Assembly (NCBI GenBank): GCA_963838505.1
Contig: CAWIRG010000018.1
Location: forward strand, 3,147 to 35,146
DNA: 32,000 bases
From: Candidatus Bathyarchaeota archaeon
Lineage (GTDB): Archaea > Thermoproteota > Bathyarchaeia > Bathyarchaeales > Bathycorpusculaceae
Reading direction: 5' to 3'
The notes beneath the pieces are model-generated. The model saw only the letters and a list, made by a program, of their open reading frames with translations. It searched no databases and was not told where the DNA came from. Shown here piece by piece: positions 1 through 32,000 of this stretch; position 1 is the stretch's first letter; each line of letters begins with the position of its first letter. A program made the position numbers and the translations under genes.

Positions 1-97
1 CTTTTCCTGTTTGAGCGTTCTGCAGGGCGGAACTGGCGCCGAGGGAAACCTTGCCGGTTTTCACAGCTGAAGTTATTGCCTTGCCTACATCAATCAT
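1..97 (-). CDS. rpl30e: 50S ribosomal protein L30e, N-terminal fragment; the gene runs off the window start
   Basis: The minus-strand ATG (97..95) overlaps the rpoA TGA stop as ATGA. Hand translation gives MIDVGKAITSAVKTGKVSLGASSALQNAQTGK, which is L30e-like. Its position directly downstream of rpoA is the usual archaeal order. Confidence 0.55.
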   Translation of the reverse strand, partial: MIDVGKAITSAVKTGKVSLGASSALQNAQTGK

Positions 98-5685: not shown

Positions 5686-7286
5686 TTAGCTGGCGAACCG
5701 AAATACCCGATTATGTTTCCGTCAACAAAGACTTTTGACCCAGAGAGCTTCAAGGTTTCGTCTGCCTCAAGTACGGGCTGAACGCCAGAACTGAAAAGCA
5801 ACTGCTTGATCTTGTCCGGGTTTACTCCCACTGAGATGGTTGCAGACAAAGCCAGATTCTTGACGAGACCACAGTTTGATCCTTCGGGAGTTTCGTTGGG
5901 GCACAAACGTCCCCAATGGGTTGCGTGAAGGTCTCTTGCTTCAAAGTTGGGTTGACTTCTGCTCAAGGGTGATTGAAGTCTTCGTAGATGACTCAGAGTG
6001 GAGATGTGATTTGTCCTGTCTAGCAGCTGAGTTATGCCGACTCTTCCTCTTCCCCAGTTTCCAGTTGCAAGTGCATGTTGAAATCGTTCAGCGATTATTC
6101 CAGGACGAACTGCTACTGAGACGGTTATTATTGGCCCCTTCACGCCGATGCGTTCAAGCTGGTATTTTATGTCGCGTGTCAGGTTCCTGAATGCTACCCT
6201 GAAAAGGTCAGCTAGTAAGGGACCAGCAAGTCTCAGTCGCTTGTTCTTGAAGTGGTCCTTGTCATCGGTCTTTCGCCTTTCAAGTTGCAGCTCAATTGCT
6301 CTGCAAGCCATTTCACTCAAGAACAATGCCTTGTCCTTTCTGCTCTGATCTGTCCTGCCAATGTGAGGCAGAAAGTTTTTGTCTATTGCGGCCTCTGCTT
6401 TTTGGATTCTGTATTCTTCCACTTGCCCATGAGCAACACGGTTTCCCACGAACAGGATAGCATCTTTGGCATTGTCTACTCCAAGTGCTTTCTCGTAAGA
6501 AGGTTCCAGGCTAGTCTGTATGTCTTTGTCAAGAGAGATTGATTCTGCAATTTCCTTGTCTGATTCCAATCCAAGGGCACGCATCAGTACGATAAACGGA
6601 ATTTCCGACGGAACACCTGGAATTGAAACGTATATTGCTCCGTCAGACTTGATCTTTAACTCTATCCTCGCCCTGAAACCCACCGTCGTCGAAAATATCT
6701 TGGATTGATAAACAGGGGTTATTCCCTTCTCATCAATGTCAACGATGATTCGGTTCGGCGCCAAGTCTTCCATTGCGACTATTACACGTTCTGAACCGTT
6801 GACCACGAAGTAACCTCCTGGGTCATCAGGGTCTTCGCCGCACGCTATCAGTTCCTCTCTAGATAGCTGAGACAAAAAGCAAAGTTTTGATTTAAGCATG
6901 ACAGGGATGTTTCCTATGTAGACGAGTTCGGTGTCCTGTTCCCTCCCATCTATGACAGGGGTCATTTCAAGCGCTACGGGTGCCGCATAAGTTAGATTTC
7001 GAAGTCTCCCTTCCATAGGGTAGATTTCATGTTTTGTACCGTCTACTTCGGTAACGTAGGGTCCTGTTATTCTGGTCTGAGGGTCTATGATCCATATTTG
7101 ACCTAGCTTCACCTTGTAAGGGTTCTCCGGAACCTCTATGGGGATTTCGCCTATCTCATCTATCACTTCTTGAAGGCCACGGTCGATGAACTCATTGTAA
7201 GAATCAAGATGCTGCCGTACCAGGCCCTTATCCTTGAAAAAGGCATCTAGGAGTATACGTGCATTCTCGCTTGACGTTTTATCCAA
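5631..7286 (-). CDS. rpoB: RNA polymerase subunit B, N-terminal (B''-equivalent) portion
   Basis: 551-aa ORF with a TTG start preceded by GGGAG. The N-terminus AFFKDKGLVRQHLDSYNEFI and the later NWGRGRVG, LRRLQSPL and CPNETPEGSNCGLVKNL are RpoB hallmarks. It ends in a 55-nt overlap with the next rpoB fragment. Confidence 0.92.
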   Translation of the reverse strand: MDKTSSENARILLDAFFKDKGLVRQHLDSYNEFIDRGLQEVIDEIGEIPIEVPENPYKVKLGQIWIIDPQTRITGPYVTEVDGTKHEIYPMEGRLRNLTYAAPVALEMTPVIDGREQDTELVYIGNIPVMLKSKLCFLSQLSREELIACGEDPDDPGGYFVVNGSERVIVAMEDLAPNRIIVDIDEKGITPVYQSKIFSTTVGFRARIELKIKSDGAIYVSIPGVPSEIPFIVLMRALGLESDKEIAESISLDKDIQTSLEPSYEKALGVDNAKDAILFVGNRVAHGQVEEYRIQKAEAAIDKNFLPHIGRTDQSRKDKALFLSEMACRAIELQLERRKTDDKDHFKNKRLRLAGPLLADLFRVAFRNLTRDIKYQLERIGVKGPIITVSVAVRPGIIAERFQHALATGNWGRGRVGITQLLDRTNHISTLSHLRRLQSPLSRSQPNFEARDLHATHWGRLCPNETPEGSNCGLVKNLALSATISVGVNPDKIKQLLFSSGVQPVLEADETLKLSGSKVFVDGNIIGYFGSPANWPESLLIGEEEERYRQK

Positions 7287-8608: not shown

Positions 8609-9577
8609 ATGCATATATCTCTGCGAAATGTTAGAACTTTGCGCTTGCATATGGTTCAAGGCGAAATCATGATTATTGCAGATAAGATATTGAAGCTGAA
8701 GAAAGAGAAGAACGCAATAATCTTGGCACATAATTATCAAAGGAACGATGTTCAGGAAATCGCAGACTACGTTGGAGACAGCATAGAACTCAGCAGGAAA
8801 GCCATGGAAGAGAAAGACGCAAAAATAATAGTTTTCTCTGCTGTCGATTTCATGGCGGAGTCAGCGGCGATTTTGAACCCTGACAAGAAGGTGCTGCTGC
8901 CAACACTAAGTGCACGATGCCCCATGGCACAGATGCTCACGGTTGAAGAGATAAAGCGATCGAAGATGTGCCACCCCTCTGTGCCAGTAGTTCTCTATGT
9001 AAATACTTTGGCCGCGGCTAAGGCCCACTGCGACATATGCTGCACTTCAGCCAACGCTGTGGATGTGGTAGAATCGCTGGATGCTGAAACGGTGCTTTTC
9101 GGTCCAGACCGCAACCTGGCTGAATATGTTCAGAGGAAAACTGGAAAAACTGTTATTCCCATTCCTGAATGGGGGTTCTGCCCAACGCACTTGCTTTTTC
9201 AAGCTGAAGACATTCACATACTTAAGGCTCAACACCCCGAAGCCAAGGTGATGGTGCATCCTGAATGCACCTTTGAAATGCAGAAGACTGCAGACTTCGT
9301 GGGAAGCACTTCTCAGATGTGCAGGTATGCAAAGGAATGCGAAGCTGAGACTTTTATTGTAGGAACTGAAGAGGGATTACTTCATCGCCTGAGGAAAGAG
9401 AATCCTCGGAAGACGTTTCTTCTGGCGTATGAAGAGGCTGTTTGCCCAACCATGAAGTTGAACACTCTTGACAGGATTTACACGGCGTTGAAAGAAGAGA
9501 AATATGTGATTACCGTTTCTGAACCTATTGCTAAGCAGGCTAGGAAAGCCCTTGAAAGAATGTTTGAACTCAAATAG
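8609..9577 (+). CDS. nadA: Quinolinate synthase NadA; the likely true start is the ATG at 8669 (MIIADKIL)
   Basis: ILAHNYQ, VDFMAESA, CPMA, CTSANA and VHPEC motifs are in the typical NadA order. Length is about 300 aa from 8669. Confidence 0.9.
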   Translation: MHISLRNVRTLRLHMVQGEIMIIADKILKLKKEKNAIILAHNYQRNDVQEIADYVGDSIELSRKAMEEKDAKIIVFSAVDFMAESAAILNPDKKVLLPTLSARCPMAQMLTVEEIKRSKMCHPSVPVVLYVNTLAAAKAHCDICCTSANAVDVVESLDAETVLFGPDRNLAEYVQRKTGKTVIPIPEWGFCPTHLLFQAEDIHILKAQHPEAKVMVHPECTFEMQKTADFVGSTSQMCRYAKECEAETFIVGTEEGLLHRLRKENPRKTFLLAYEEAVCPTMKLNTLDRIYTALKEEKYVITVSEPIAKQARKALERMFELK

Positions 9578-9639
9578 TCGATGCAGTCGCATGGCGCGCA
9601 CGAGCTGAACCTGAGCGGCTTACAGGGGGATCGCAAGGA

Positions 9640-9659
9640 CTCGAGAGCACGAGCTTTTT
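9640..9659 (+). terminator. Hairpin plus T5 tract downstream of nadA
   Basis: CTCG-AGAGCA-CGAG followed by CTTTTT, about 65 nt after the nadA stop. Oligo-T tracts terminate archaeal transcription. Confidence 0.4.
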
Positions 9660-9711
9660 GTGCAAGAAGAGTGAGTGTTGTATTGTATGCTAGTAGTCCA
9701 GTGGTGTTGAA

Positions 9712-10155
9712 TTGGAAATGGAAGATCTGAGAGCCGCAAGAAACCGTCTTGGCGAGAAGGGCTTGACGCTGTGCATCGTAAAGGACAAACAGGTGCTTTT
9801 TGAAACTGCCTCCAATGGGATTTCAGGTTTTCTTACAGCAACTGAAAAACTTGGCGAGCGACTTCACGGAGCTTCTGCGGCGGATAAGGTGGTTGGTAAA
9901 GCGGTCGCGCTTATATGTCTGTACACGGGAATCGAAGCAGTATACGGGTCCGTAATGAGCTGCAGAGCAAGAGAATTGCTGGAGCAGAAGGCCGTTCGAG
10001 CCGAATGGGACTACCTTGTCGAGAACATACTCAGCGACGGTGAACCGACGATTTGCCCATACGAGAGATTAGCAGCGGACATAAGTGATCCTTCGGAAGC
10101 CTACACAAAACTTAAAGCTTTGCAGGATTCTAAGACAGCGCGGATGAAAGAATGA
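9712..10155 (+). CDS. DUF1893 (TM1506-like) domain protein
   Basis: The central ADKVVGKAVAL, the C-terminal CPYE and the length of about 145 aa match my recollection of this family. Its stop overlaps the next start (ATGA). Confidence 0.5.
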   Translation: MEMEDLRAARNRLGEKGLTLCIVKDKQVLFETASNGISGFLTATEKLGERLHGASAADKVVGKAVALICLYTGIEAVYGSVMSCRARELLEQKAVRAEWDYLVENILSDGEPTICPYERLAADISDPSEAYTKLKALQDSKTARMKE

Positions 10156-10577
10156 ACAGAGGATACAACAGCTTCTCGTCTAGAGGAAAGGAAGAGGAAG
10201 GCATTAAACAGAAAAGGATGCCTGAACCCGATGGAGAAAAGGAACAGGGAACGAAAGGCAAGCCTGTTCATGTAACTGATTTGAATTTCAAAGAGCTAAC
10301 CTCGAAACATGCATTAGCGTTAGTTGACTTTTGGGCAGCATGGTGTGGCCCCTGCCAGTCTCTGGCGCCAACGATTGAAGAAGTGGCTAAGGAATACGAA
10401 GGCAGAGTGTTAGTTGGTAAGCTCAACGTTGATGAAAATCCGCAGACAGCAGAGTGTTTTCAGGTGTTCAGTATTCCAACTATGGTGATAACGAAGAAGG
10501 GCAAAGAAGTGGACAGAATAGTTGGATGTGTTCAGAAGAGGAACATCGAAGAGACGTTGGAGAAGCATTTGAAGTAG
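10152..10577 (+). CDS. trxA: Thioredoxin with a charged N-terminal extension (alternative start MPEPDG at 10218)
   Basis: FWAAWCGPC active site, followed by VDENP and SIPT as in the thioredoxin fold. Confidence 0.88.
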   Translation: MNRGYNSFSSRGKEEEGIKQKRMPEPDGEKEQGTKGKPVHVTDLNFKELTSKHALALVDFWAAWCGPCQSLAPTIEEVAKEYEGRVLVGKLNVDENPQTAECFQVFSIPTMVITKKGKEVDRIVGCVQKRNIEETLEKHLK

Positions 10578-10586
10578 GTTTGAAGC

Positions 10587-10715
10587 ATGGATATAAATGA
10601 ACGTCGCGTGGTTGGTGCTTTGCTATTGCTTCTGGGCGTTTCCTTATTAGCCATCGGCCTCTACACAGGCCAGCTGGACACAATTAGAAATCTGCTCAGA
10701 AACGTCTTCCCCTAA
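10587..10715 (+). CDS. Small (42 aa) single-pass membrane protein, hypothetical
   Basis: Hand translation gives MDINERRVVGALLLLLGVSLLAIGLYTGQLDTIRNLLRNVFP. It sits 10 nt after the thioredoxin stop. It is below the ORF-track length cut-off. Confidence 0.3.
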   Translation: MDINERRVVGALLLLLGVSLLAIGLYTGQLDTIRNLLRNVFP

Positions 10716-10779
10716 TCAAGAGCGAGAGAAAAGTTTTAAGCCTGACCAACGTTTTTTAGAATTCTCATTCGCAGGATGT

Positions 10780-11358
10780 GTGAATGTAGACATGAGCCCG
10801 CCAACTATCGAAAGTGAACGTGGAGAAAGCGAGGCCCTTCTGGAAGCAGCTAGACTCATGCTATTAGCTGTGAGAACAGCTCCTAAGACTTTAGGCAAAG
10901 ATGATGTTGTTTCTTTGATTCTTTGTGGAAAGGAAAAGGACGCTATTGCTGACGAAATGGAGGAAATTGCAATTGAAAGGAAGATTGAAGGATTCAAGAG
11001 AGATGCAAAGAACGTTAGGGATTCTAATGCCGTGGTCTTGGTAGGTGTGAGAGGTGACAGAAGCGTCGGCCTGGATTGTGGAGGCTGTGGCCACAGGGGC
11101 TGTCAAGAATTTGATAAATCAGACAAGAAGAGGGGAAATGACTTTTCAGGTCCCACGTGTGTCTTCAAAGCGTTAGACCTGGGAATATCGTTGGGATCGG
11201 CTGCGAAAACAGCGGCCATGCTTGACGTTGACAATCGCATGATGTATCGAGTTGGGACGGCAGCTATGAAAATTGGGCTGTTGCCCGAGGCAACGATTAT
11301 CGTTGGAATCCCCGTTTCAGCCAAAGGCAAAAGCATCTATTTTGACCGCGCCAAATAA
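10780..11358 (+). CDS. DUF2148-type protein with a ferredoxin-like Cys cluster
   Basis: LDCGGCGHRGCQEF cysteine motif, the flanking APKTLGKDD, and the length of about 190 aa fit the DUF2148/COG4739 family as I recall it. Confidence 0.55.
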   Translation: MNVDMSPPTIESERGESEALLEAARLMLLAVRTAPKTLGKDDVVSLILCGKEKDAIADEMEEIAIERKIEGFKRDAKNVRDSNAVVLVGVRGDRSVGLDCGGCGHRGCQEFDKSDKKRGNDFSGPTCVFKALDLGISLGSAAKTAAMLDVDNRMMYRVGTAAMKIGLLPEATIIVGIPVSAKGKSIYFDRAK

Positions 11359-11362
11359 TTCT

Positions 11363-11974
11363 CTAAGTTTGACCCTTCATTTTCTCATACATTTTCTCCA
11401 GCGTCCAACGGATGCTCGACTTGAGCTCCTTCAGTCTGTCAGGATCAACGTTCTTGACCGCTATTTCACGTATGACATCGCCTTCTCGAACAACGCTGTA
11501 ACAGAGGACATCTTCAGGAGACAGTTGTCCAGCTCTGACTAGTTCGCTGTCCCTTTCCTGCATTTTCTGCAAGATTCTTTCTACGAAGAACTGGGCAAAA
11601 GGAGGTGTATTGATATTGAAGTTTTTGTCTTCAGCCAACACCACACGCAGAGAATCTCCGTGCGCATAAAGGTTGGCAAGAAGCTCACCTGCCATGGTTT
11701 GCAATGGAGTGGCGTTCTCATTTTCTTCCATCGATTGGGATTCTGCTGGCTCAAGCTCTCCTTCATTCAAACGTCCTGCTGGCGGCAGTGTTTCAGTTGT
11801 TGTCGGTTCCTTTTTGACTTCGAGACGTCTGAACCCTTTTTCGATGAGAAAAGAGGTGACGATATCAAGCATCGTCTGTGAATCTTTGAGGTCGGAACTC
11901 ATCTGTTCAATCTTGATTTCAAGTTTCTTCTTGAATTCCACGAGCCGCTTCATTCTTTCTGCTTCTTCAGACAA
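11363..11974 (-). CDS. Hypothetical protein with an N-terminal coiled coil and an acidic linker
   Basis: 203-aa ORF with coding-like composition and no recognisable motif. An alternative ATG lies at 11953. Confidence 0.5.
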   Translation of the reverse strand: MSEEAERMKRLVEFKKKLEIKIEQMSSDLKDSQTMLDIVTSFLIEKGFRRLEVKKEPTTTETLPPAGRLNEGELEPAESQSMEENENATPLQTMAGELLANLYAHGDSLRVVLAEDKNFNINTPPFAQFFVERILQKMQERDSELVRAGQLSPEDVLCYSVVREGDVIREIAVKNVDPDRLKELKSSIRWTLEKMYEKMKGQT

Positions 11975-12129
11975 TTTCCATTCCCGAATAATATGTTGCA
12001 GGCCTTCCCTTTATCAACCCTTTGAAATTCGAAGTGACGCTTAAGTCGTCTCGAGCCCGCGCAGATTGCTTGCAACGAGCAGAGAGAAGAGCAGTTATTT
12101 GCGGACACATGTGAGAGAGGGCAGTTTTA

Positions 12130-12627
12130 CTATGCAAGTTCAGGTATTGCGTTGGTGTCAACGGTGATTTTTGAGTTAGAAAAGGAGTGAAGAGGTTGAA
12201 CCATAATTTTGAGTTCGCTTTGAAGGAATGTTTCGAATTCATGAAAGATAGGGCTGTCTGTGTTATTGAGTTTGAGGCACATGTTTTTTCCATTCACTAA
12301 TGGGCTTAGATCAAAGATGGCCACACGCTTTGAATATTCTGGGTCCTCCGTGACTATCTTTAGCAAATCGTCTGAAGGTTCTTCTGAAAAAAGCCAAGCC
12401 ATACGGGAGGATTCAACGACACTGTAGGATACTCCTTTTTGAACCACGCACTTTCTGTTGGAGATTATTGCTTTGAAGGAAGAAGAAGGCACGTTTCTGG
12501 TCCAAAGGAAATTGTGATAGGTATCATTCAACTCTATCCAGTCTTCATGTTCGGAAGCTCTATACCCTTTTGACCTGCAAAAACCTTTGAAGCGCTCGAA
12601 TATTTCCCATACCTTCGGCAAACGCAT
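12130..12627 (-). CDS. Hypothetical protein
   Basis: 165-aa ORF with an ATG start. It is divergent from the Lrp gene and has no recognisable motif. Confidence 0.5.
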   Translation of the reverse strand: MRLPKVWEIFERFKGFCRSKGYRASEHEDWIELNDTYHNFLWTRNVPSSSFKAIISNRKCVVQKGVSYSVVESSRMAWLFSEEPSDDLLKIVTEDPEYSKRVAIFDLSPLVNGKNMCLKLNNTDSPIFHEFETFLQSELKIMVQPLHSFSNSKITVDTNAIPELA

Positions 12628-12847
12628 ATTTCATTCCGCCTGAAACAATCTTCTAGAACAACGTTCTAGTTGGTGGACCGGAGACTTAAACCTTTTTGTC
12701 AACGTTTTCCAAAACAATGAAGCCTAGACAGCCACGTTATTGCAGTTTTGTAGGCATTAGTCGTCGTTTCATATAAATTCTCCGACAGCAACGTGAGCGA
12801 TTTTTCACGAGAAAAGGATGAGTGTGCCCAATGACAAGAAATAAATC

Positions 12848-12863
12848 CTGATATATCTATCAG
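12848..12863 (+). promoter_or_regulatory. Palindrome CTGATA-TATC-TATCAG overlapping an AT-rich TATA-like core upstream of the Lrp gene
   Basis: Perfect 6-bp arms. It lies 25-40 nt upstream of the 12888 start and just before GGAGG (12871..12875). This is a plausible autoregulatory operator or promoter. Confidence 0.3.
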
Positions 12864-12887
12864 AAACAAGGAGGAGAATGAGTACAG

Positions 12888-13412
12888 TTGAAGCTCAAGA
12901 ATAATGCTGTTTCTCTGGATAATACAGACATTGGGATTTTGCAGGAATTGCAGAAGAATTCAAGAGAGACGTATGGAGCCATAGGTAAAAGGCTGGGAAT
13001 AGCTCACTCAACGGTGTATGACAGGGTGAGAAGAATGGAGCAGCAGAAAGTGATTAAGAACTACACGACGATCATAGACGTTGAGAAAATGGGGATAAAA
13101 AACGTTACTGCGATAATGACAGTTTATACAGACCCAAAGGAAACCGAGAAGGTCGCAGAGAAATTGGCGGCTTTGCCACAGGCCCTTGAGGTTTACACGT
13201 CTCTTTCAGAAGAGCTTCTTATAATAGCAAAAGTCATCGCAGCAAGTCAAGAAGACCTGCATGAACTGATAGCTAACCTGATTGCACCATTTCCAGGAGT
13301 TCTGAGAATCCGCACCTCTATCATTACAAAGAAGTTTAAAGAAGCTGAATTTCAGTTTCCTTATCACAAGGAAAAGTTAGCTTTTAATAGAGAAATGGAC
13401 AATAATACGTGA
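12888..13412 (+). CDS. Lrp/AsnC-family transcriptional regulator
   Basis: N-terminal helix-turn-helix (LDNTDIGILQELQKNSRETYGAIGKRLGIAHSTVYDRVRRMEQQKVI) followed by a RAM-like domain. Confidence 0.85.
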   Translation: MKLKNNAVSLDNTDIGILQELQKNSRETYGAIGKRLGIAHSTVYDRVRRMEQQKVIKNYTTIIDVEKMGIKNVTAIMTVYTDPKETEKVAEKLAALPQALEVYTSLSEELLIIAKVIAASQEDLHELIANLIAPFPGVLRIRTSIITKKFKEAEFQFPYHKEKLAFNREMDNNT

Positions 13413-22572: not shown

Positions 22573-22810
22573 TTACGGGTTGATACCCCAAGTGCTGCCG
22601 TAGTTGAGTGCTAGTGTTACTAGGTCGGATAGTCCGACTATGCCTGCTGGTGGTGCAATGTCGCATCCTGGTTCCCAGACGCCTAGGCCGCCGAGTTTGA
22701 ATGGTACTGGTATTGGACTGCCGTAGCCGATTGTTCCGTACGCGTTGGCCAACATCACTAGGTCGGATAAGCCTATCTTGTAGCTTCCGCCTGATGGTAC
22801 TGTGGTACTA
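22573..22810 (-). repeat. Internal duplication encoding KIGLSDLVMLANAYGT and IVGLSDLVTLALNYGS, 46 aa apart
   Basis: TAGGTCGGATA occurs on the plus strand at 22621..22631 and again at 22759..22769, an offset of 138 nt. Each copy encodes GLSDLV..LA.(A/N)YG preceded by a loop (CDIAPPAGIV in copy 2). Confidence 0.6.
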
Positions 22811-24848
22811 GTCCAGTAGTACTTCATGTCTATGTCGCCCTGAGTGATTTTCATCCAGAATTGCGTGTTTGGAACGCATTCTAGACCTGTGTATGCGCCT
22901 GGTGCGCCAGATAGAGTGCCAGGATTGTACTTCCACATGCCTGTGCCTACCCAAGTGTACTGTTCACCGCCCGCGCTTGTTAGCTGCGAGAAAGTGAACG
23001 GGTTGGGGTTTTGTGGTTGTGAGACTGCAATTTCTGATACATCTGCAGCTTGGCCTGGCCAATAGCCGTGGTGGCCAGTTGTGGAACCGCCTCCTGGTGC
23101 ATCTCCTGGGATGGCGATGTATTGGTAGATGTGTTGGGGAATGATGTCAACTGTAGCATCATAGGTCATCCAGAAGCTTGGTGAAGTGAAGTACCAAGAG
23201 ATACAAGTGGGGCTATGGACTGTATAGCCGACAACGAACTGCCAGCCACTCCATGTCCAAGAGTCACCATACGTGTATCCTATCATGCCCGTGTAAATCC
23301 AGTCGTTTACAGTGAACGGTACGCCGTCTGACCAGTTGATGTCACTTCTGAACCAGAACGTAACATTAGCACAGTTGGTGTAGCTGGTGTCTGCTGGTGT
23401 TCCCCACGCGTCTGAAGTGCTTCCGCCTTGTCCGATGTCATTGTACCATCCGGTGAAGTTGCTCAGCTGGTATTTCCAGTCGTACGCCATCCAAGGTTGG
23501 TCGCCGCCAGTTGGGCTCTTAGATGGAGTAGTTGATGTATACGGGTTTGTTGCCATGGGGCCGTTGAATATTCTGTCTACGACTTCGTAGTCCCAGACCC
23601 AGCTGCTGAAGATGGGGTTGATCTGGGTGGGCGGGTTCAGGGTTCCGTATCTGATTGTCATTGGTGCCGTGTACGGCGAGGTCTTGGCGTTCATGAAAGT
23701 GTATTCGAGTGCTGTTGTCAAAGCGTAGCCACGGAAGTTTATTGCGCCGACGACGCCTGTCCTGTAGGCCATGTATGACCTAGAGGTGTACAGCGTCGCG
23801 AACATGGCTTGCTTGACAATTATGTCCTGGCACATCAATGCTGCGGTTTGTGAATCGGAAATGCTGGAAGCGTTTGGATACTCTTGGTATGCCCAGTATG
23901 TCATGTTTGCGTCGTCAATCATGTATGGGTTCGGACCGCCAATGTATATGCCTACCGGGGTGTAGCTTGAGTAGAACTGTAGTGGTTGTGTGCTGAAGCT
24001 CCAGCCTACGGTGGCAATGTCATAGTTTCGTGCATAGAAAACAACGGGGCTGACGAGACCAGAGTTTCCTGTGTGCATAGGCTCAAGAGCGAATCCTAAA
24101 CGGACTAATTCGCCGTAAAGTTGTGTGCCCGCTGCTAGTCTCGGTGCGTGGTCGCTTCTAACGTACACTCTCAGGTTCTCAACTACTTGCCCAGCTTTTG
24201 CGGTTGCTGTTAACGGGTAGTGAATTGTGCCCGAGGGCAACGGAAGCAAACCTTGTATTTGGGTAGCGGTGTCACTTGCATAGGGTGAATTGACAAACCA
24301 GCCGCCGGCGAGTAGAATTTGTATTGCGTGAAGTTCACTGAAGTCCCATGGGTAATTGTTGATCAGGTTGCCGCTTGCATCGTACTTGCTGTCACCGTAG
24401 TTGACCCAGTTGTTGTCAATGGGTCTAACAATTGGGGTGTCGATTCTTGTGCCGAAGCCGTTCAATATTGAACCTGAAATTAAGCTGTCTTTGTCAACGA
24501 GGCATGCGATTGCCTGTCTGAAGTCAGTGTAGTTCATAGCCTTCCTAGTCGAGACCGTGGCGTCAGTAGCGTTGTTGTTAAAGGCAATTCGTAATCGCCC
24601 AAGTCATAGTAGGGCGCAGTTGTTATGGCATGATTGCTATTCACTGACGTCCATTCTGGGTAGGTCAGTGGCCAAGCCATAATGTCAACCTCATTGTTCA
24701 GCAAGCCCGTGAAAAGGGCATCTTGACCAGCGTAGAACTTGTACTGCAATGATTGTGCGAGCGGACCGTTAAGTGCAAAGGTTGGCGATATCATTATTAA
24801 AGTCATCATTAGACTTGCAACAATAGCAACTATTTTTAACAATTTCAT
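22573..24848 (-). pseudogene. oppA: ABC transporter solute-binding protein (family 5, peptide/oligosaccharide type, about 758 aa) with a C-terminal duplicated dockerin-like segment; one 1-nt deletion near 24586-24590
   Basis: ORF 24534..24848 gives the signal peptide MKLLKIVAIVASLMMTLIMISPTFA and the first 90 aa. The frame then continues as IAFNNNATDATVSTRKAMNYTDFRQAIA into ORF 22573..24537. It has the operon position and size of an Opp/Dpp binding protein. Confidence 0.8.
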
Positions 24849-24981: not shown

Positions 24982-25971
24982 TCAAGTATCCGACGGCAAC
25001 TGCTCTATCTTTCGTCTCTTCCTCACAAATGGGACGACAACCGCGGCTCCTATGACAATAACAAGCGCAGCTAGAGCGTAGTACAGGAGGTATAGGTGGG
25101 AAGTGACGTCCACCACTGTTACCAATGCGATCAAGCCCGTGACAGTTTTTCCGCCCGTCGTGATAGAAACTTGAAACTCGAAAAATCCAGTCTGATTCGC
25201 CGTCCACTGATACGAGAAGAAGCCTGAACTGTTCAGCGGAACAACCGCTAGGTCTGTCAAGTTTTCGCCAACTTCCCCGTACTCAAGTGTGACACTTGAA
25301 ACAGTGGCGCCTGCAGAACCAGTAACGGCTCCTGTCAGAGTCGTTTGTTCGCCGACGTTAATCACGTCTGGTTTCACAGACAGCGAAACAGGCGTGCCAT
25401 AATCTCCATCTTGAAGTGCGCTGGGAAGGACCTCACCATATTGGCCGCTTACTATGTTGCTGCTCATAAAATACGTTCCATTCGGCTCCGATGAACCTGG
25501 CCTGTACACACCGAGATGAATGTGTGAGGAACCCTCTGACACGACTCTGAAGGTGACGTTCAGCAGGATACCTCCGCCGTTGGCCGCCGCTAGACCAATT
25601 ATGGCCGACGAGTAGGAAACCTGTCCGGTAGGAGGCTGGCTTATGTGATTCTCAGCGGCGTGTGTGACCGAGGCAGTGGGTCCGAAGGATGGCATGAATG
25701 GTCCTTCGACTGCTTGGGTGACGTTGAGCACTGTTGGGTCATAGGTTACGAACACCTGAACGCCTGCAACGTTCAAGTCTGCCAAAACGTTTTCAACGTG
25801 CACGTAGATGGTGAAGTTGCTGTTGATGTCCTGGGTCAGAGTGTCCTGCGGGTCTATGCTCACGACGGGGCCGTTGGCTTGCGTCTGAGCGTGAACGTGT
25901 AAACTCTGCGGGAGGATTATTAAACCCAAGACTACCACGATGAGGAAGAAAGCAGATTTGGCTTTACCCAT
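24982..25971 (-). CDS. Secreted cohesin-like domain protein with a second beta-rich domain and a C-terminal TM anchor
   Basis: Signal peptide, then NSNFTIYVHVENVLADLNVAGVQVFVTYDPTVLNVTQAVEGPF..GGGILLNVTFRVV (cohesin-like pattern). The C-terminal TM LYYALAALVIVIGAAVVVPF is followed by RKRRK. Confidence 0.7.
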   Translation of the reverse strand: MGKAKSAFFLIVVVLGLIILPQSLHVHAQTQANGPVVSIDPQDTLTQDINSNFTIYVHVENVLADLNVAGVQVFVTYDPTVLNVTQAVEGPFMPSFGPTASVTHAAENHISQPPTGQVSYSSAIIGLAAANGGGILLNVTFRVVSEGSSHIHLGVYRPGSSEPNGTYFMSSNIVSGQYGEVLPSALQDGDYGTPVSLSVKPDVINVGEQTTLTGAVTGSAGATVSSVTLEYGEVGENLTDLAVVPLNSSGFFSYQWTANQTGFFEFQVSITTGGKTVTGLIALVTVVDVTSHLYLLYYALAALVIVIGAAVVVPFVRKRRKIEQLPSDT

Positions 25972-26198: not shown

Positions 26199-26390
26199 AT
26201 GAAACCTATTAAAGTCTTAACTTTGGTTCTCAGCTCTAGTGCTACTCACCGCACCCATAATGGTATACAACCCAGCACATGCAGCACCAATAATAAACTT
26301 TGAAGTCATGAATACTGAAGGTTTTGCAAACATTAACTTCACTGATCCAATTCACGGATTAGGAATACCGAACACCACGCCCTTAAGCAT
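26199..26390 (+). pseudogene. 5' fragment of an archaeal secreted protein, truncated at the compositional junction; also a +1 insertion near 26232
   Basis: MKPIKVLTLVL (frame 0) continues as ALVLLTAPIMVYNPAHA-APIINFEVMNTEGFANINFTDPIHGLGIPNTTP (frame 1). The sequence after about 26390 is GC-rich and non-homologous in character. Confidence 0.5.
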
Positions 26391-26399
26391 TCAGGGTGC

Positions 26400-27960
26400 T
26401 CTTCGCTCTCACCTCCTTGGGTCCTGCTGCCTCGTCATCCGTTGATAACCTTGTGGTCTGCTCTCGGGGTGCGCGTGGGAGTGGGCGCGTGGGTTATCCA
26501 CAGCGGAGCGTTCCGCTCTCGGCGCGCCCATGACCGGGGCCCCTTCCCAGGCCCCCGGGCGCGTCGCAGGCTCGGCTGTGGAGAACCCGACCGTGGCGTT
26601 CGGGCGTGCTTCACGCTGCTACCTTGCGCGCTCGGTTGCGGGACTGCGGGCGCGGCCGCCGCCGCAGCACAATGGTGTCTGGTGGCGTGGTCGTGCGGCG
26701 CTCAGCTTCCTTGGTCTGGTTGCTGCCTTGCGCCACACAGCGGGCAATGGCCCACATGAACCCCACCAGTTCGCGGGCAATGGCGGTGACGATCTTGTTG
26801 CGCTGCTTGTGCTGGGCGCTCAAGTGGTTGAAGCGCGTGCACAGTCGCAGCTGCGCCTTCCAGGCGATGTCACGGATCTCTTTCGACAGCTCCTCCTGGC
26901 GCTTGAGCACGCGCGCACTGATGGCGGGCTGATGCACGTAGGCCCAGGCCGCCTCGCCCAGCACGCGGCGCACGTGCGCGTTGCCGCTCTTGGTGATCGC
27001 CCCCTGGCGGCGGCGCTCCCCGCTGGAGTACTCTGAGGGCACCAGGCCGAGAAAGGCCATGAGGCGGCGCGGCTGGAAACGACTGAGGTCACCCACCTCC
27101 GCCACCACGGTCACCGCCACCACCCACGACACGCCGCGCAGCGCTTGCAACGCATCGACGTACGGCTTGAGCCGCCACGCCACCACCAGTGCCTGGATCT
27201 GGCTGCTGAGCCGTTCGACCCGCCCCTCAGCCTCCTCGATGGCCCCGACATATTCCTCCAGCGTGACCCGCTGCGCCGCATGAGAGAAGCTTTGCGCCGC
27301 CACCCACCGGCGGTGCGCCAGGCTCCACTTCTTCTTGCCCGAGTAGCGCCGCCCGTGGCGTAACATGAACGAGTTCAGTCGCTGCCGTGCCCGGCGCCGA
27401 TTGTGCACCGCGTCCTCGCGCCCCCGCACCAGATCGCGGATCGCCTCATCCTCCGGCTCCGGCACGTAGAGCGCCCGCAGCGCGCCGGCGCGGTGTTGCA
27501 GCGCCAGCGTGCGCGCGTCGCGCCGGTCGGTCTTGACGCGATCCGACGGCCTCTTCGGCACACCGGCCGGCGACACCACCGTGCAGTGCAGACCCCGCTC
27601 TCTGAGGTGGCGGTAGATCACGTAGCCGCACGGTCCGGCCTCATAGACCAAGCGCAGCTCGGCTCCGCATTTCATCAGCTTGTCCACCGCCGTGTCCAGC
27701 GACTGCAGATCCCCGCCGATGCACCCGAAGTGCGCGACCTTGCCGTCGTGCCCCTGCTCGGCCGTGGTGATGTCGATCGACTTTCGGTGTACATCCATCC
27801 CAACAAACATGATACGCTTTTGCATGACCTGCCTCCTTTGCATGTGGCTCTGTGCGGTGGGCCCATCCCGCCGCGTAACCCACGCTGTGCAAGAGGCAGG
27901 TCGCTTCATCAAGTGCAGCCATTATGACTAGGTGGCGTGACTGGCCCATGGCTGGGAGGC
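26400..27960 (-). mobile_element. IS110-family insertion sequence (boundaries approximate)
   Basis: It contains the transposase below. The span of about 1.5 kb is typical for the family, which lacks classical terminal inverted repeats. The left limit coincides with the AT-to-GC switch. Confidence 0.6.
26611..27825 (-). CDS. IS110-family transposase (DEDD-type N-terminal domain plus Transposase_20-type C-terminal domain)
   Basis: MQKRIMFVGMDVHRKSIDI start preceded by AAGGAGG. Also EAGPCGY, VVSPAGVP, TDRRDA, LRGVSWVVAVTVVAEVGDLSRF and GERRRQGAITKSGNAHVRRVL. The ORF-track start at 27912 is an upstream extension. Confidence 0.9.
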   Translation of the reverse strand: MQKRIMFVGMDVHRKSIDITTAEQGHDGKVAHFGCIGGDLQSLDTAVDKLMKCGAELRLVYEAGPCGYVIYRHLRERGLHCTVVSPAGVPKRPSDRVKTDRRDARTLALQHRAGALRALYVPEPEDEAIRDLVRGREDAVHNRRRARQRLNSFMLRHGRRYSGKKKWSLAHRRWVAAQSFSHAAQRVTLEEYVGAIEEAEGRVERLSSQIQALVVAWRLKPYVDALQALRGVSWVVAVTVVAEVGDLSRFQPRRLMAFLGLVPSEYSSGERRRQGAITKSGNAHVRRVLGEAAWAYVHQPAISARVLKRQEELSKEIRDIAWKAQLRLCTRFNHLSAQHKQRNKIVTAIARELVGFMWAIARCVAQGSNQTKEAERRTTTPPDTIVLRRRPRPQSRNRARKVAA

Positions 27961-27971
27961 AGGGTTAGCTG

Positions 27972-28937
27972 ATGGGGTATCATGTCTACGACCTAGCGGA
28001 GTTTTCACTCTCCGCAGTTGGACCGCATAGCTGCTACGTATACCTCTTCTGCCAGGACGGGAGGGTTGCGAACCGGTTCGCAGAGGACATTGGTGAGAAA
28101 GCGGTCTCCATCACGGGGGGCATCGACGGAGTTGATTGGCTGTTCGCTTCAGATCGTCCCACGTGGTTGAGTGCTCACGCCTATTTCTACGCGACAATCT
28201 GCGTCGTTTGCCCTCGCAAGGCAGAGGCCGAGAAGTTCTTGCGAGCCTACAAGCAGTTTCGACATTGGAGCGAACGCGCGGCTAGTTCAAGTGAGCCGGT
28301 GGGTCTCGCACCGACGGCGCCCCTCACGAGGCTGGACAACGTACTTGTTGTGTCCATTCCGCGCACGCACAACCCCGACTTTGCAGGCTTCATGGCTAGC
28401 GGGCTGAACGAGCAGGCACGTGCTCACGATGTGGTGCTGGGCGTATTTGCGAAGATGGTGAAAATGGGACTTGCTCGAGATGCTGCGATCCGCGGAGAAC
28501 CGGACCTTCTCGCCGAGCGCATTCGAGTATTGAGTCACATCGCGACGTACGTGTACGACCATGCGGTCTTGGTCGACACCCTCGGTGGGTCCGTTATCCC
28601 AATTGATGAACAGCGCAAGACTGTATTCGAAGAGGTCCGCGCAGAGTTGGCGGCGGTCAAGAAGGGACTCTCTGCTCTCGGCCAGGGTAAAGACGTACAG
28701 GAACTCATGCACCAACTTCGGGATCTGAACAAGTTGTTGACCGAGGTGGACTGGGGAAAGCGTCCGCTGTCGGTGCAGGCGACTTTGGGTTTCGAAGCGT
28801 TCGGCAACGGTGTAAAGCTCGTCTTCGACTCAAATGGGCTCTCGACAAGCCCACTAACGCGGATTCGGAATTTGCTAAGCTCCTTCCGGGAGCTCCATGA
28901 GCCAGGCGCTGATAAGCGCCACCTAACAAGGCCATGA
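27972..28937 (+). CDS. Hypothetical protein (321 aa), no recognisable family
   Basis: ATG preceded by GGGAGG (27952..27957). It is uninterrupted, and its GC looks lower than in the flanking IS elements. Confidence 0.6.
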   Translation: MGYHVYDLAEFSLSAVGPHSCYVYLFCQDGRVANRFAEDIGEKAVSITGGIDGVDWLFASDRPTWLSAHAYFYATICVVCPRKAEAEKFLRAYKQFRHWSERAASSSEPVGLAPTAPLTRLDNVLVVSIPRTHNPDFAGFMASGLNEQARAHDVVLGVFAKMVKMGLARDAAIRGEPDLLAERIRVLSHIATYVYDHAVLVDTLGGSVIPIDEQRKTVFEEVRAELAAVKKGLSALGQGKDVQELMHQLRDLNKLLTEVDWGKRPLSVQATLGFEAFGNGVKLVFDSNGLSTSPLTRIRNLLSSFRELHEPGADKRHLTRP

Positions 28938-29055
28938 ACCCGCTGGTCGCCGCTTCGCGTCGCCCACGGGTTATGGCTGGCGTTGGGCGGGTCGGCCGAG
29001 CCTGTACGCGTGAGATATGCTATTATCCCCTGGTAGTGGAGGAGCGACGGTCTGA

Positions 29056-29290
29056 ATGCCACGAATCCAGGGTATCCCGGGCCATATCGGTTCTTCTTCA
29101 CGAGCTTCGACTGCAACGAGCCACCACATGTCCACGTGGAGCGCGAGAACAAGACCTGCAAGTTCTGGTTTGAGCCGCTTGGGCTTGCCCGTAATCACGG
29201 TTTCGGGCGCGAGAGTTGAACGTGATTCGTCGCATCATCCAGACGCATCGTGCCGGCATTCTGGAGGCATGGCATGAACACTGCGGCTAG
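29056..29290 (+). pseudogene. DUF4160-family protein, with two 1-nt deletions
   Basis: Hand translation across three frames gives MPRIQGIPG / GPYRFFFTSFDCNEPPHVHVERENKTCKFWFEPLGLARNHGFGRE / ELNVIRRIIQTHRAGILEAWHEHCG. GPYRFFF..EPPHVHV..KFW is the family signature. Breaks are at about 29078-29083 and 29208-29214. Confidence 0.7.
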
Positions 29291-29620
29291 CAGCGATCCC
29301 CGCATCGAGCACGTCCGAGTCACCGAGGACGAGATCATCGCGCAGCTGGTGGATGGCCGGGTGATCAGCGTCCCGCTCGCTTGGTCATGGCGACTGGCCG
29401 AGGCGACCCGGCACAGCGCGCAAACTTCCGGCTGATCGGCACCGGCCAAGGGGTGCACTGGCCTGAGATCGACGAAGACATCAGCGTCGAGGGGATGCTG
29501 CACGGGACCCCGGCGCGCCGCCCAAAGCCGAGAGCCGCAGCGACCGGGCCACGCACGGGCCGCCACGGACCGCCGAACAAGCGCATGCAGCCGCCGCGCA
29601 AGAGAGCCGCGCGCGGCTGA
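29274..29620 (+). pseudogene. DUF2442-family protein, with one 1-nt deletion in a C run (29407-29409)
   Basis: MNTAASSDPRIEHVRVTEDEIIAQLVDGRVISVPLAWSWRLAEAT continues as PAQRANFRLIGTGQGVHWPEIDEDISVEGML in the next frame. Its start overlaps the DUF4160 gene end. Confidence 0.65.
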
Positions 29621-29638
29621 TGCGCACGCCGTTGAGGA

Positions 29639-31391
29639 TGTAGAAAAAGTCCGCGCATCCAGGTAAATCAAGGTCTGGCGGGTGTCGTCACGATGCCCGG
29701 ACGGCTGAGGTGGCTGGGGAGGAGTGGATGGCGCGGTACAAGCCGTACAACCTGAAGCAGGACAAGTGGATTCCGCTGAGCTATGCGGATCAGATCTGCC
29801 CGGCTCGTTCGAGTACGCGCTCAACGAGATCGTCGAAGAGCACCTGGATCTGAGCATGTTCGAGCGGCGCTACCGCAACGATGACACGGGGCGGTTGGCG
29901 TACGACCCAAAGGTGCTGCTCAAGATCGTGCTCTACGGATACTATAAAGGCCTGGTGTCGAGCCGTAAGGTGGAGGAAGCCTGCCGGCGCAACGTGGTGT
30001 TCATGGCGTTGTCGGCGGACACGCGGCCGCACTTCACGACGATCGCCGCGTTCGTGGCGAGCTGGAGCAGGAGATCGTGGAGCTGTTCCGCGATGTGCTG
30101 TTGTACTGCGATGAGCTGGGACTGATCGGCAAAGAGCACTTTGCCATCGACGGCTGCAAGCTGCCCTCGAATGCCTGCAAGCAGTGGAGCGGGACACTCG
30201 AAGAGCTCGCAGACAAGCAGGAGAAGATGGAGCGGGCGGCGCGCCAGATTGTGCGCCGCCACCGCGAGCGCGATGAGGCAGAGAAGCAGGGGCCACAGGG
30301 CGAGCGCGAGCAGAAGAAGCTGGCGACGTATCGGGCCAAGATCGACAAGATCAAGAGCTTTCTGGCCCAGGCCAAGCCGAACATGGGTGCCAGCGGCAAG
30401 GAGCGCAAGAGCAACATCACCGACCCGCAGAGTGCGAAGATGTCGACCGCGCACGGAGTAATCCAGGGGTACAACGGGGTGGCGGTGGTCGACGATATGC
30501 ATCAGGTAGTGGTGCACGCCGAGGCGTACGGCAACGGCCAGGAGCAAGATTGCTCGGGCCGACGATCGAGGGGACACGCCAGAACTTTGCCAGGATCGGC
30601 CACGAGGAGGACATCTTCAAGAAGGCGAAGGTGACGGCGGACAGCGGTTTTCACTCGGCCAAGAGCGTGGAGCAGGTGGTGCAAAGCGGGGTGGATGCGT
30701 ACATTGCCGACGCCAACTATCGGCGCCGCGATGCGGCGTTTGCAAACGTCGGGCGGTTCAAGGAGCGCCACCGCAAGGAGCAGCGTCGGCGCAGTGGTGC
30801 CGAGGAGCGGTGGCGCTTCGGGCCGGAAGATTTCATCTACGACGAGCAGGCGCGCACATGCGTGTGTCCGGCGGGCAAGAAGCTGTATCGGTGCGGCAAG
30901 CTGATCAGACCGGGGGGTACCTCAACGTGCGTTTCAAGGCACCGAAGAGTGCGTGTCGGGGCTGCGTGTTGAGGAGCCAGTGTTTGAAGTACCCTGAGCG
31001 CACGGTGCAGCGTCAGGTGGCGTTCTTTGTCGGGCGAGTGGCGCAGGCGGCGCGGCAGGCGATGGAGGTGATGCGGGAGAAGTTCGACAGTGTGCTGGGG
31101 CGGCTGATCTACGCCAAGCGCATCGGGACGGTGGAGCCGGTGTTCGCGAACCTTCAGAACAAGGGCATGCGTCGCTTCACGTTGCGTGGCCGGCGCAAGG
31201 TGAGCACGCAATGGAAGCTGTTCACGCTGGTGCACAACATCGAGAAGGTCGCCCACGCCAAAGCTGCATGATGCCTGAGCGACGGGCAAAGGGACGGTTT
31301 CTCAGTCACCCGGAACCGCTCGCGGCATGAGCTCCCCACGCCGACCATCACCGGCGCCGCCGCTTGCCAACCACCACCGAGTTTTTCTACA
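29639..31391 (+). mobile_element. IS1182-family insertion sequence (1753 bp) with imperfect terminal inverted repeats
   Basis: The left end is TGTAGAAAAAGTCCG (29639..29653). The reverse complement of the right end is TGTAGAAAAACTCGG (31377..31391), a 13/15 match. They enclose the transposase reading frames. Confidence 0.75.
29728..31271 (+). pseudogene. IS1182-family DDE transposase, frame broken by four 1-nt deletions
   Basis: MARYKPYNLKQDKWIPLSYADQI / LPGSFEYALNEIVEEHLDLSMFERRYRNDDTGRLAYDPKVLLKIVLYGYYKG..HFTTIAAFV / ELEQEIVELFRDVLLYCDELGLIGKEHFAIDGCKLPSNA.. / LLGPTIEG..ADSGFHS.. / GYLNVRFKAPKSACRGCVLRSQC..FANLQNKGMRRFTLRG. Breaks are at about 29796, 30057-30061, 30550 and the G run at 30912-30917. 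Confidence 0.85.
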
Positions 31392-31424
31392 AGCTCGTTG
31401 GCCAGGAGGAAAGAATGAAACTGA

Positions 31425-31600
31425 AGACGGCGACTGTGATCGCAATTGTCGGCTTGGTTCTGAATCTACTCTACAACATGGGGAACGCGATGTTTATGGC
31501 GCGCGCGCATGGCGCATCTCTGCAGTGGCTCGTGAGTACGCTTCTCTTGCATGGCAGTCTGCTCGTCTTTTTCATCGTCCTTTATCGGAGACAAGAATGA
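31425..31600 (+). CDS. Small (58 aa) two-TM membrane protein, hypothetical
   Basis: ATG preceded by AGGAGGAAAGA. Sequence is MKLKTATVIAIVGLVLNLLYNMGNAMFMARAHGASLQWLVSTLLLHGSLLVFFIVLYRRQE. Confidence 0.5.
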
Positions 31601-32000
31601 CGGAGAAGAATGACAATCCTCGCCTGTTGGACGAGATTCTGGAATTGGGAAGCCAACAACCCGCATCGCTGGGCGGGCCACCGACGGCTTCAAAGCCCCC
31701 GCCGGTGTTCGGAACCATTGCGCTCTGCCTGCCTGCGATCGGGCTTCTCATTGCCATCGTCCTTACGTACCTGCTGGACAAACATGGGGGCGATAGCTTT
31801 GCCAGAGGATTTCTTCCACCGTTTGTCGGCAGTTGGGATCTCTCCCAGCCTCGCTGCTGGGCATCTGCGCGTCCATTGTCGCGCTCATCAGACGGGAGCG
31901 GTTGAAAGCTCTCGCGGTCATAGGGCTCTTGTTGAATGGCGTCATCATCGTTCCGACAGGCGTGTTGACATGGATAACGATCGTGAGCCTGGGAACATAA
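31597..32000 (+). pseudogene. Membrane protein, hypothetical; at least one frame break, probably two
   Basis: Its ATG overlaps the upstream TGA (ATGA). MTEKNDNPRLLDEILELG..VFGTIALCLPAIGLLIAIVLTYLL (frame 1) is followed in another frame by LGSLPASLLGICASIVALIRRERLKALAVIGLLLNGVIIVPTGVLTWITIVSLGT, ending at 32000. Confidence 0.4.

Follow-up and report, generated by a model that had tools for sequence, protein, structure and literature searches.

A sharp archaeal-to-bacterial junction inside an IS110-family element probably marks a chimeric metagenomic contig

Composition and gene-level taxonomy change abruptly at one point in the window, by which we mean the whole 32,000-nucleotide stretch that we analyzed from a deposited contig of 35,161 bp. 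Judging from the sequence, we consider it probable that this source contig is chimeric and combines DNA of two organisms from a single sample. The left part (1-26,389) would be chromosome of a Bathyarchaeia-like archaeon and would end inside a gene for a cohesin-family secreted protein. The right part (26,390-32,000) would be mobile-element-rich DNA of a high-GC soil bacterium, starting 1,541 bp into a multi-copy insertion sequence (IS) of the IS110 family, IS1111 group. The join, with 26,389 as the last archaeal base and 26,390 as the first IS base, would then connect two unrelated sequences directly at their ends, neither of which is a natural element boundary, and would have no biological function. 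We favor this reading because the IS and the archaeal gene are both cut internally (at position 1,541 of ~1,813 and at codon ~64 of a 634-aa homologue, respectively) and because there is no integration signature, there is no amelioration, and the relatives of the IS are all bacterial.

The compositional step between 26,389 and 26,390 is real and sharp. In 500-nt bins, GC content stays between 0.40 and 0.56 throughout up to 26,500 and between 0.57 and 0.70 from 26,501 to the window end. At finer scale, 60-nt windows rise from ~0.35-0.42 at 26,280-26,380 to 0.63-0.82 by 26,420-26,580. Mean GC is 0.472 for 1-26,389, 0.674 for the IS part, and 0.609 for 27,931-32,000. Tetranucleotide profiles correlate at 0.78-0.88 among archaeal 5.6-kb segments, compared with -0.14 to 0.15 between archaeal segments and the GC-rich part. 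The original prediction had described an abrupt archaeal-to-bacterial switch and had proposed comparing the tetranucleotides of 1-26,390 with those of the rest; the bins, the 60-nt windows, and a tetranucleotide r of ~0 between the uncorrelated halves all bear it out.

Gene content divides in the same way. Pfam and NCBIfam identified RNA polymerase A'/A'' and subunit B, NadA, and an Opp-type ABC transporter in the archaeal half, and an IS110-family transposase, an IS1182-family transposase (over several frames), DUF2442 (over two frames), and DUF4160 in the GC-rich half, in agreement with the placement first proposed for rpoA/rpoB on one side and for IS110, IS1182, and DUF4160/DUF2442 on the other. 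The RNA polymerase genes (94-7286, minus strand), recognized by their Pfam Rpb1 (1-5) and Rpb2 domains, mark the left part as archaeal chromosome: one open reading frame (ORF) of 1,273 aa covers both A' and A'' (rpoA; 94-3915, minus strand), and rpoB is split over at least three frames (about 3915-7286, minus strand; three-frame translation). The NCBIfam archaeal A', A'', and B equivalogs were matched, A'/A'' above the cut-off. An intron-containing tRNA that had been reported for this half could not be recovered, as neither ARAGORN nor Rfam at its gathering threshold detected a tRNA anywhere in the window, and Rfam found no known RNA family in the window at all.

To the right of the junction lies the 3'-truncated IS (26,390-27,930, minus strand), identified by Pfam, NCBIfam, and alignment of 11 copies. 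Its transposase is intact (404 aa; 26,611-27,825, minus strand), contains DEDD_Tnp_IS110 (PF01548, E 8.8e-15) and Transposase_20 (PF02371, E 1.1e-19), and scores 238.9 bits against NCBIfam transpos_IS110, for which the cut-off is 140. We defined the ends of the element from the 11 independent copies (L083-L086 and L088-L094; 82-98.7% nucleotide identity). All 11 align with the window from 27,932 downward and cease at or before 26,390, and for the eight closest (96-98.7%) the alignment breaks off exactly at 26,390. Past the counterpart of 26,390, all of the copies share ~273 nt more and finish at the same point, ...CAGCCATATCAACG, after which their flanks diverge. The full IS is ~1,813 bp (23-1835 in L083, with the transposase gene at 128-1342), and the window copy comprises positions 1-1,541 and is missing the last ~273 nt; archaeal DNA therefore abuts IS position 1,541 and not an IS terminus. 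Of the right non-coding end, alignment to full-length copies shows that 221 of ~493 nt are kept (26,390-26,610, minus strand). The left end (27,826-27,930, minus strand; 105 nt in full-length copies) is complete, and its terminus at 27,930 adjoins flanking DNA as a true IS end. The original prediction put the junction ~210 nt past the transposase stop, where it expected the element to finish. The distance is nearly right (221 nt by our measurement), but the real right end lies ~493 nt past the stop, and the description of the junction as the edge of the element was mistaken, the 11 copies placing it ~273 nt inside.

Subterminal inverted repeats of 7-17 bp at both ends are expected of the IS1111 group. 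Full-length relatives carry TAGTCATAATGGCTG... on the left and ...CAGCCATATCAACG on the right, with a 7-nt core of ATGGCTG/CAGCCAT. The window copy retains the left subterminal inverted repeat only, the right one having been lost with the missing end. A short left end and a long right end characterize the IS1111 group (PMC11208160), and full-length copies of this element have both (105 nt and ~493 nt). The host range of the IS is bacterial throughout the relatives that we found. The window copy is 98.7% identical to one in L094, a bacterial contig of 62% GC, and the flanks of all 11 other copies are 59-69% GC wherever at least 100 nt of flank are present. In GTDB, the 80 loci that best match the transposase all belong to bacteria, chiefly Vicinamibacterales, other Acidobacteriota, Gemmatimonadota, and Proteobacteria; a plasmid database gave just distant (~65%) IS110 matches. 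The flanks of several copies suggest a semi-conserved target. When the archaeal flank was compared by eye with the usual right-flank motif of the IS, the match came to only four nucleotides (GCTT), consistent with chance.

On the archaeal side, the junction interrupts a gene. The fragment (26,199-26,389, plus strand), identified by direct reading of the sequence and a syntenic N-terminal match, is the 5' portion of a gene for a secreted cohesin-family protein. It starts with an ATG at 26,199 and has one single-base frame break near 26,220. Its ~64 codons specify a signal-peptide-like N-terminus and ~35 mature residues; the original prediction had correctly described a secreted-protein gene cut by the switch, with a somewhat longer mature portion of ~45 residues. 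The frame from this ATG crosses into the GC-rich DNA and reaches a stop at 26,443-26,445. In contig L087, the gene at the syntenic position encodes a 634-aa protein and is divergent from a cohesin gene, which is then followed by an SBP_bac_5 gene. The N-termini of the fragment and of the L087 protein are 42% identical (pairwise E 3e-5), and by this comparison ~570 codons are missing. As a query, the 66-aa fragment shared too few words with database entries, and beyond the L087 N-terminal match it returned no intact orthologue. Three start variants of the fusion ORF (26,239-26,445) were absent from a collection of 15 billion proteins, in which an exact match depends on the gene caller's model. 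The divergent neighbor in the window (24,982-25,971, minus strand; Pfam Cohesin) encodes an archaeal secreted or membrane protein of 329 aa. Its homologues are 45-55% identical, the single one with a taxon name belonging to Candidatus Bathyarchaeia, and an identical copy occurs solely on the 35,161-bp source contig. The closest archaeal relative, P0177, is 87% identical in the substrate-binding protein and lies on a 558,860-bp contig.

Both partners also occur separately in one sequencing run, ERR10755944. The archaeon is represented there by a separate Logan contig, L096, with 99.89% identity to window positions 9,446-13,136. The bacterium is represented by L095, an independent Logan contig that equals window positions 27,903-29,049 with one mismatch, including the left-end junction of the IS. 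Both genomes were thus available for mis-joining, and the breakpoints on both are non-biological. Under this reading, the bacterial path may have stopped within a repeat left unresolved by the assembler and the archaeal path in one of a family of paralogous cohesin genes, and the two ends would then have been linked through a chimeric read or an assembler error. The contig contains assembly errors: the substrate-binding protein gene has a frame break relative to an intact 851-aa orthologue that is 87% identical, and the essential rpoB has frame breaks as well. As a point against the chimera, the archaeal 3.7 kb aligned to L096 has no indels, so the contig is not uniformly poor. Single-base frame breaks in both halves had been noted from the outset as unable to discriminate between the explanations, correctly in our view.

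Further observations count against a chimera. Arbitrary breakpoints in both partners are equally expected from illegitimate (non-homologous) integration, and there is no shared repeat to account for the assembler joining these two ends. The longest k-mer common to both halves is 13 nt, and that between the archaeal half and the full-length IS is 12 nt. The 13-nt limit rules out a repeat-mediated misjoin as the literal mechanism, the IS being multi-copy on the bacterial side only. The original prediction had offered a genuine acquisition and a chimera joined at or next to a repeat without choosing between them; the chimera is now favored, and its placement at a repeat is unsupported. Compared by eye, the nanopore ligation adapter showed no resemblance to the junction.

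The principal alternative is a very recent inter-domain acquisition, in which a co-resident high-GC bacterium was the source of at least 5.6 kb of IS-rich DNA that entered the archaeal chromosome through illegitimate recombination. We regard this as unlikely, and the same low probability attaches to its variants, namely direct non-homologous end joining into the cohesin-family surface-protein gene, or integration followed by trimming through deletion. The presence of both organisms in run ERR10755944 means that donor and recipient were co-located, a blunt, repeat-free junction is what non-homologous integration produces, both gene sets are present on the deposited contig, and a graph-based misjoin lacks a shared k-mer to explain it. 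Against these points, the repeat scan detected no direct repeats, inverted repeats, target-site duplication, or terminal repeat at the junction; no integrase family was found among the Pfam and NCBIfam matches of the scanned ORFs; and no att or tRNA target was found, so that the signature of island integration is missing. Archaeal DNA does not resume within 5.6 kb: GC remains at or above 0.52 as far as the window extends and does not revert to the archaeal composition, the window covering all but up to 3.1 kb of the source contig. To our knowledge, cross-domain transfers this recent are very rare, and we counted this against acquisition.

The content of the GC-rich segment beyond the IS also speaks against acquisition, as it is mobile-element debris with no gene of plausible benefit. 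Homology to L001 (89% at the nucleotide level) begins exactly at 27,929, the start of a bacterial flank module of ~1,014 bp (27,929-28,942, plus strand) that contains a 321-aa ORF of unknown function (27,972-28,937, plus strand). DUF4160 follows at about 29,056-29,290 (plus strand), with two to three single-base deletions compared with L095, which encodes an intact 78-aa version; the alignment to L095 has three 1-nt deletions on the window side. DUF2442 extends over two frames at 29,250-29,620 (plus strand), its halves matching profile positions 2-36 and 35-70. An IS1182-family transposase (DUF772 and DDE_Tnp_1_6; 29,724-31,271, plus strand) is in at least four frame pieces, the N- and C-terminal parts of NCBIfam transpos_IS1182 falling on separate ORFs. 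Amelioration is zero, with 98.7-99.9% identity to bacterial copies. Compared with L095, the segment is a mosaic of 99.9% identity followed by 92%, the changes being mostly synonymous, as expected of a segment undergoing strain-level recombination in bacteria; this suggests recombination within a bacterial population.

Far less probable is that an IS110-family element transposed into the archaeal secreted-protein gene and that the assembler then exited into the flank of a bacterial copy, a repeat-mediated misjoin. The junction does lie in non-coding DNA 221 nt after the transposase stop, about where one would guess a typical IS110 element to finish from its sequence alone, but the alignments to the 11 copies refute the idea: in 11 of 11 comparators the real right end is ~273 nt further on, and the window copy has no right subterminal inverted repeat. 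The bridge RNA of the IS1111 group is predicted to lie in the long right end (PMC11208160). Rfam 15 gave no match on a full-length IS copy. The recombinase of the element could not itself have inserted, in that form, a copy that stops at position 1,541, and no IS copy was found in low-GC or archaeal flanks. Least credible of all is a rearrangement that brought 26 kb of archaeal chromosome into a bacterial genome or plasmid, for which physical linkage in the contig speaks and nothing else, since the 26-kb part holds archaeal core genes (RNA polymerase A and B, NadA, ABC transporter) in homogeneous archaeal composition and matches a separate archaeal contig of the same run.

If the join is an artifact, as we think probable, a public archaeal metagenome-assembled contig includes at least 5.6 kb of bacterial DNA, which should be trimmed because it would lead to overestimates of inter-domain transfer and of IS110 and IS1182 content in Bathyarchaeia-like archaea. 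Setting IS ends from independent copies quickly shows whether transposition can account for a "junction at an IS." A real join would give a rare view of bacterial DNA still un-ameliorated within an archaeal chromosome, inter-domain transfer caught nearly in the act.

Compared with known systems, the element resembles the IS1111 group (Durrant et al. 2024, PMC11208160) in its DEDD_Tnp_IS110 and Transposase_20 domains and in the subterminal inverted repeats of its full-length relatives, and differs in that the window copy is a 3'-truncated remnant without the last ~273 nt and the right subterminal repeat. With bacteria-to-archaea transfer islands, the window shares DNA of foreign composition beside archaeal core genes; unlike them, it has no second archaeal flank up to its end at 32,000, no integrase or att site, and no amelioration, and its content consists of IS remnants and small toxin-antitoxin-like genes near-identical to bacterial copies from the same sample. 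Long-read metagenome assemblies are documented to contain cross-domain chimeric contigs, which are not uncommon there and are marked by sudden shifts in GC and taxonomy (bioRxiv 10.1101/2025.04.22.649783). The chimeras of that study, [quoted passage not shown] were diagnosed by read clipping and coverage, whereas ours is proposed from the sequence; the window matches them in its sudden GC and taxonomy shift, in its combination of two domains from one sample, and in its indel-type frame breaks.

The original prediction described an archaeal left part meeting a GC-rich, bacterial-type right part, and both the composition and the gene content bore this out. The GC fraction per 500-nt bin was 0.40-0.56 up to 26,500 and 0.57-0.70 from 26,501 to the window end, and in 60-nt windows it climbed from ~0.35-0.42 at 26,280-26,380 to 0.63-0.82 by 26,420-26,580; segment values were 0.472 (1-26,389), 0.674 (26,390-27,930), and 0.609 (27,931-32,000). 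Tetranucleotide profiles correlated at 0.78-0.88 among archaeal 5.6-kb segments and at -0.14 to 0.15 with the GC-rich part. The left part encodes archaeal RNA polymerase A′/A″ and subunit B, NadA, an Opp-type ABC transporter, and cohesin-domain proteins, and the right part an IS110-family transposase, a 321-aa ORF without a family match, DUF4160, DUF2442, and an IS1182-family transposase. RNA polymerase A′ and A″ are joined in a single uninterrupted 1,273-aa ORF (94-3915, minus strand), with archaeal equivalogs matching residues 7-883 and 906-1263; some Thermoproteota/TACK lineages typically have rpoA unsplit. A predicted intron-containing tRNA went unconfirmed, as ARAGORN and Rfam (gathering threshold), run in modes not tuned to archaeal introns, returned none in the whole window.

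The switch had been placed at the edge of the IS110 element, which comparison with other copies contradicted. We gathered copies from the contigs of transposase search matches (one 96% identical, several 81-87%) and from other cluster members, giving 11 independent copies of the same IS with nucleotide identities to the window of 98.7% (L094), 96.4-96.8% (L088-L093 and L083), and 83-85% (L084-L086). For the eight closest, the match to the window starts at 27,932/27,931 and stops precisely at 26,390, and the three more distant copies drop out of the BLAST alignment sooner, at 26,454-26,470, a variable region. In a multiple alignment, all comparators keep matching each other for ~273 nt past 26,390, whereas the window does not. 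The left end starts TAGTCATAATGGCTGC in all copies; in the six for which the exact terminal motif could be located, the common right end is ...CTTGACAA(C/G)AG(C/T)CAGCCATATCAACG, with flanks beyond it that differ between copies. Because the comparators share these ends, the full element measures ~1,813 bp (left end 105 nt, transposase 404 aa, right end ~493 nt), with subterminal inverted repeats of core ATGGCTG/CAGCCAT. The window copy (26,390-27,930, minus strand) holds positions 1-1,541 only, and 26,389|26,390 thus falls inside the IS. Full-length copies share the architecture described for the IS110 family's IS1111 group, whose members are predicted to carry a bridge RNA in the right end (PMC11208160). 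The element is an ordinary member of that group, truncated here.

All 80 best transposase loci among GTDB species representatives are bacterial (mainly Vicinamibacterales, other Acidobacteriota, Gemmatimonadota, and Proteobacteria), and the flanks of all 11 other copies, wherever at least 100 nt is present, have 59-69% GC. Several copies (L084, L085, L086, L092, and L094) have in common the right-flank motif nCTTG(C/G)CG(C/A)TGA(G/C)C(G/T)GCCG(C/G)G..., within which lies a short hairpin, GCCGC TGA GCGGC; left flanks tend towards ...(G/C)(T/A)GCCC or ...CACCC endings. These shared motifs suggest that the IS targets REP-like sites semi-specifically, which is known behaviour of IS110/IS1111 elements. 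The closest copy (L094 2690-4081) lies on a 22-kb ENA contig with a 'contig_'-type name, its transposase in two pieces (293 + 167 aa) beside an IS3-family element and phage-integrase genes; here again, the bacterial region is rich in mobile elements and error-prone or decayed.

On the archaeal side, the junction interrupts a gene that starts at ATG 26,199, preceded by a TTTAAAT box and a GGAG-rich stretch. Its product begins MKPIKVLTL..., followed by a hydrophobic core and ...NPAHA|APIINF..., and a single-base frame break interrupts the signal-peptide region near 26,220. The frame enters the IS after ~64 codons and stops 18 codons on, at 26,443-26,445. On another contig, L087, a homologue (55% identical) of the cohesin protein likewise lies between an SBP_bac_5 gene and a divergent gene; the product of the latter is 634 aa long, and its N-terminus (MKPNKVLALVLAFAMLIAPMLIMKPVRAVPI...) aligns with the window fragment (pairwise E 3e-5). 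Given the length of this syntenic homologue, ~90% of the window gene would be missing, an estimate that draws on a distant homologue and synteny rather than a close orthologue.

At the other end of the IS, the boundary is genuine and bacterial. Homology to L001, a soil-metagenome contig lacking the IS, begins exactly at 27,929 (89% nt), and L095, a Logan contig from run ERR10755944, equals window 27,903-29,049 with one mismatch, a stretch that spans the IS/flank junction and includes 27 nt of the IS left end. Together these matches show that on this side the IS sits normally in its bacterial surroundings. Identity to L095 falls sharply at ~29,043, from 99.9% (1 mismatch/1,147 nt) to ~92%, and beyond that point (L095 1147-1434) the substitutions are mostly synonymous by codon reading; this would reflect either a strain-level mosaic, as expected for DNA recombining within a bacterial population, or a second, strain-level assembly switch within the bacterial part. 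The 321-aa ORF is carried on a ~1,014-bp module (27929-28942) that recurs in L001 (337-1349) and in a second soil-metagenome contig, L002 (1-232), at 89% and 78% nt, with both flanks unrelated between the window and these contigs. An inverted repeat bounds the module, (GT)TAGGTGGCGC at the 5′ end and GCGCCACCTAAC near the 3′ end, then ...CATGAACCC, and the IS left end adjoins it exactly; the module is possibly a small mobile cassette, or else a target preferred by IS1111-type elements.

Exact-sequence look-ups placed archaeal proteins (P0121, P0150, P0164, P0175, P0176, and P0178-P0183) and bacterial proteins (P0148 and P0165) of the window on one deposited NCBI/ENA contig of 35,161 bp, 32,000 bp of which form the window. 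The archaeon also occurs as a separate Logan contig, L096 (99.89% to 9,446-13,136, no gaps); because L096 and L095 come from the same run, both organisms were in one sample.

Frame breaks occur in both halves, and we agree with the original prediction that they do not discriminate between transfer and chimera. On the left, rpoB (3915-7286, minus strand) has at least three, especially at 5176-5335 and 5631-5685, including two shifts within ~40 nt near 5,200, one resembling CC → CCC; consensus errors in an essential gene are almost certainly the cause. The gene for the SBP_bac_5/cohesin-type substrate-binding protein (22573-24848, minus strand) is in two pieces (104 + 654 aa), and its 87% identical, 851-aa orthologue on a 558,860-bp contig (P0177) reaches 93 aa past the window protein's C-terminus; for the undamaged archaeal locus, that contig would serve as the best reference. 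On the right, DUF4160 carries three 1-nt deletions relative to L095, DUF2442 occupies two frames, and the reading frame of the IS1182-family transposase is interrupted at three or more points. No indels affect the IS110 copy, the 321-aa ORF, or the 3.7 kb aligned to L096; errors are therefore patchy, and the breaks show that the assembly is imperfect.

The longest k-mer common to both halves is 13 nt, and a scan for repeats detected none, direct or inverted, around the junction, at which two truncated sequences are bluntly fused. A junction of this kind arises in two ways, as an assembly or read chimera or through illegitimate recombination in vivo. We consider a chimeric contig the likely explanation because the GC-rich segment shows no return to archaeal DNA within 5.6 kb, carries no integration machinery, is un-ameliorated, is 98.7-99.9% identical to bacterial copies (one from the same run), contains solely mobile-element remnants, and begins inside a multi-copy repeat, and because such chimeras have precedent. 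Assembly paths typically end in multi-copy repeats; here, a path would have ended in the IS, and the ends would have been bridged by a chimeric read or an assembler error. A very recent, real integration of bacterial DNA in the archaeon would need donor and recipient in one sample, as they are here, and is improbable against these features of the segment. Insertion of the IS into the archaeal gene by transposition is excluded, as archaeal DNA meets the IS at an internal position and the right terminus is missing. No new kind of system is needed to account for these observations, and the finding is best handled as contamination of the archaeal contig. Cross-domain chimeric contigs recur in long-read metagenome assemblies with the same telltale signs (bioRxiv 10.1101/2025.04.22.649783), and the junction fits their description.
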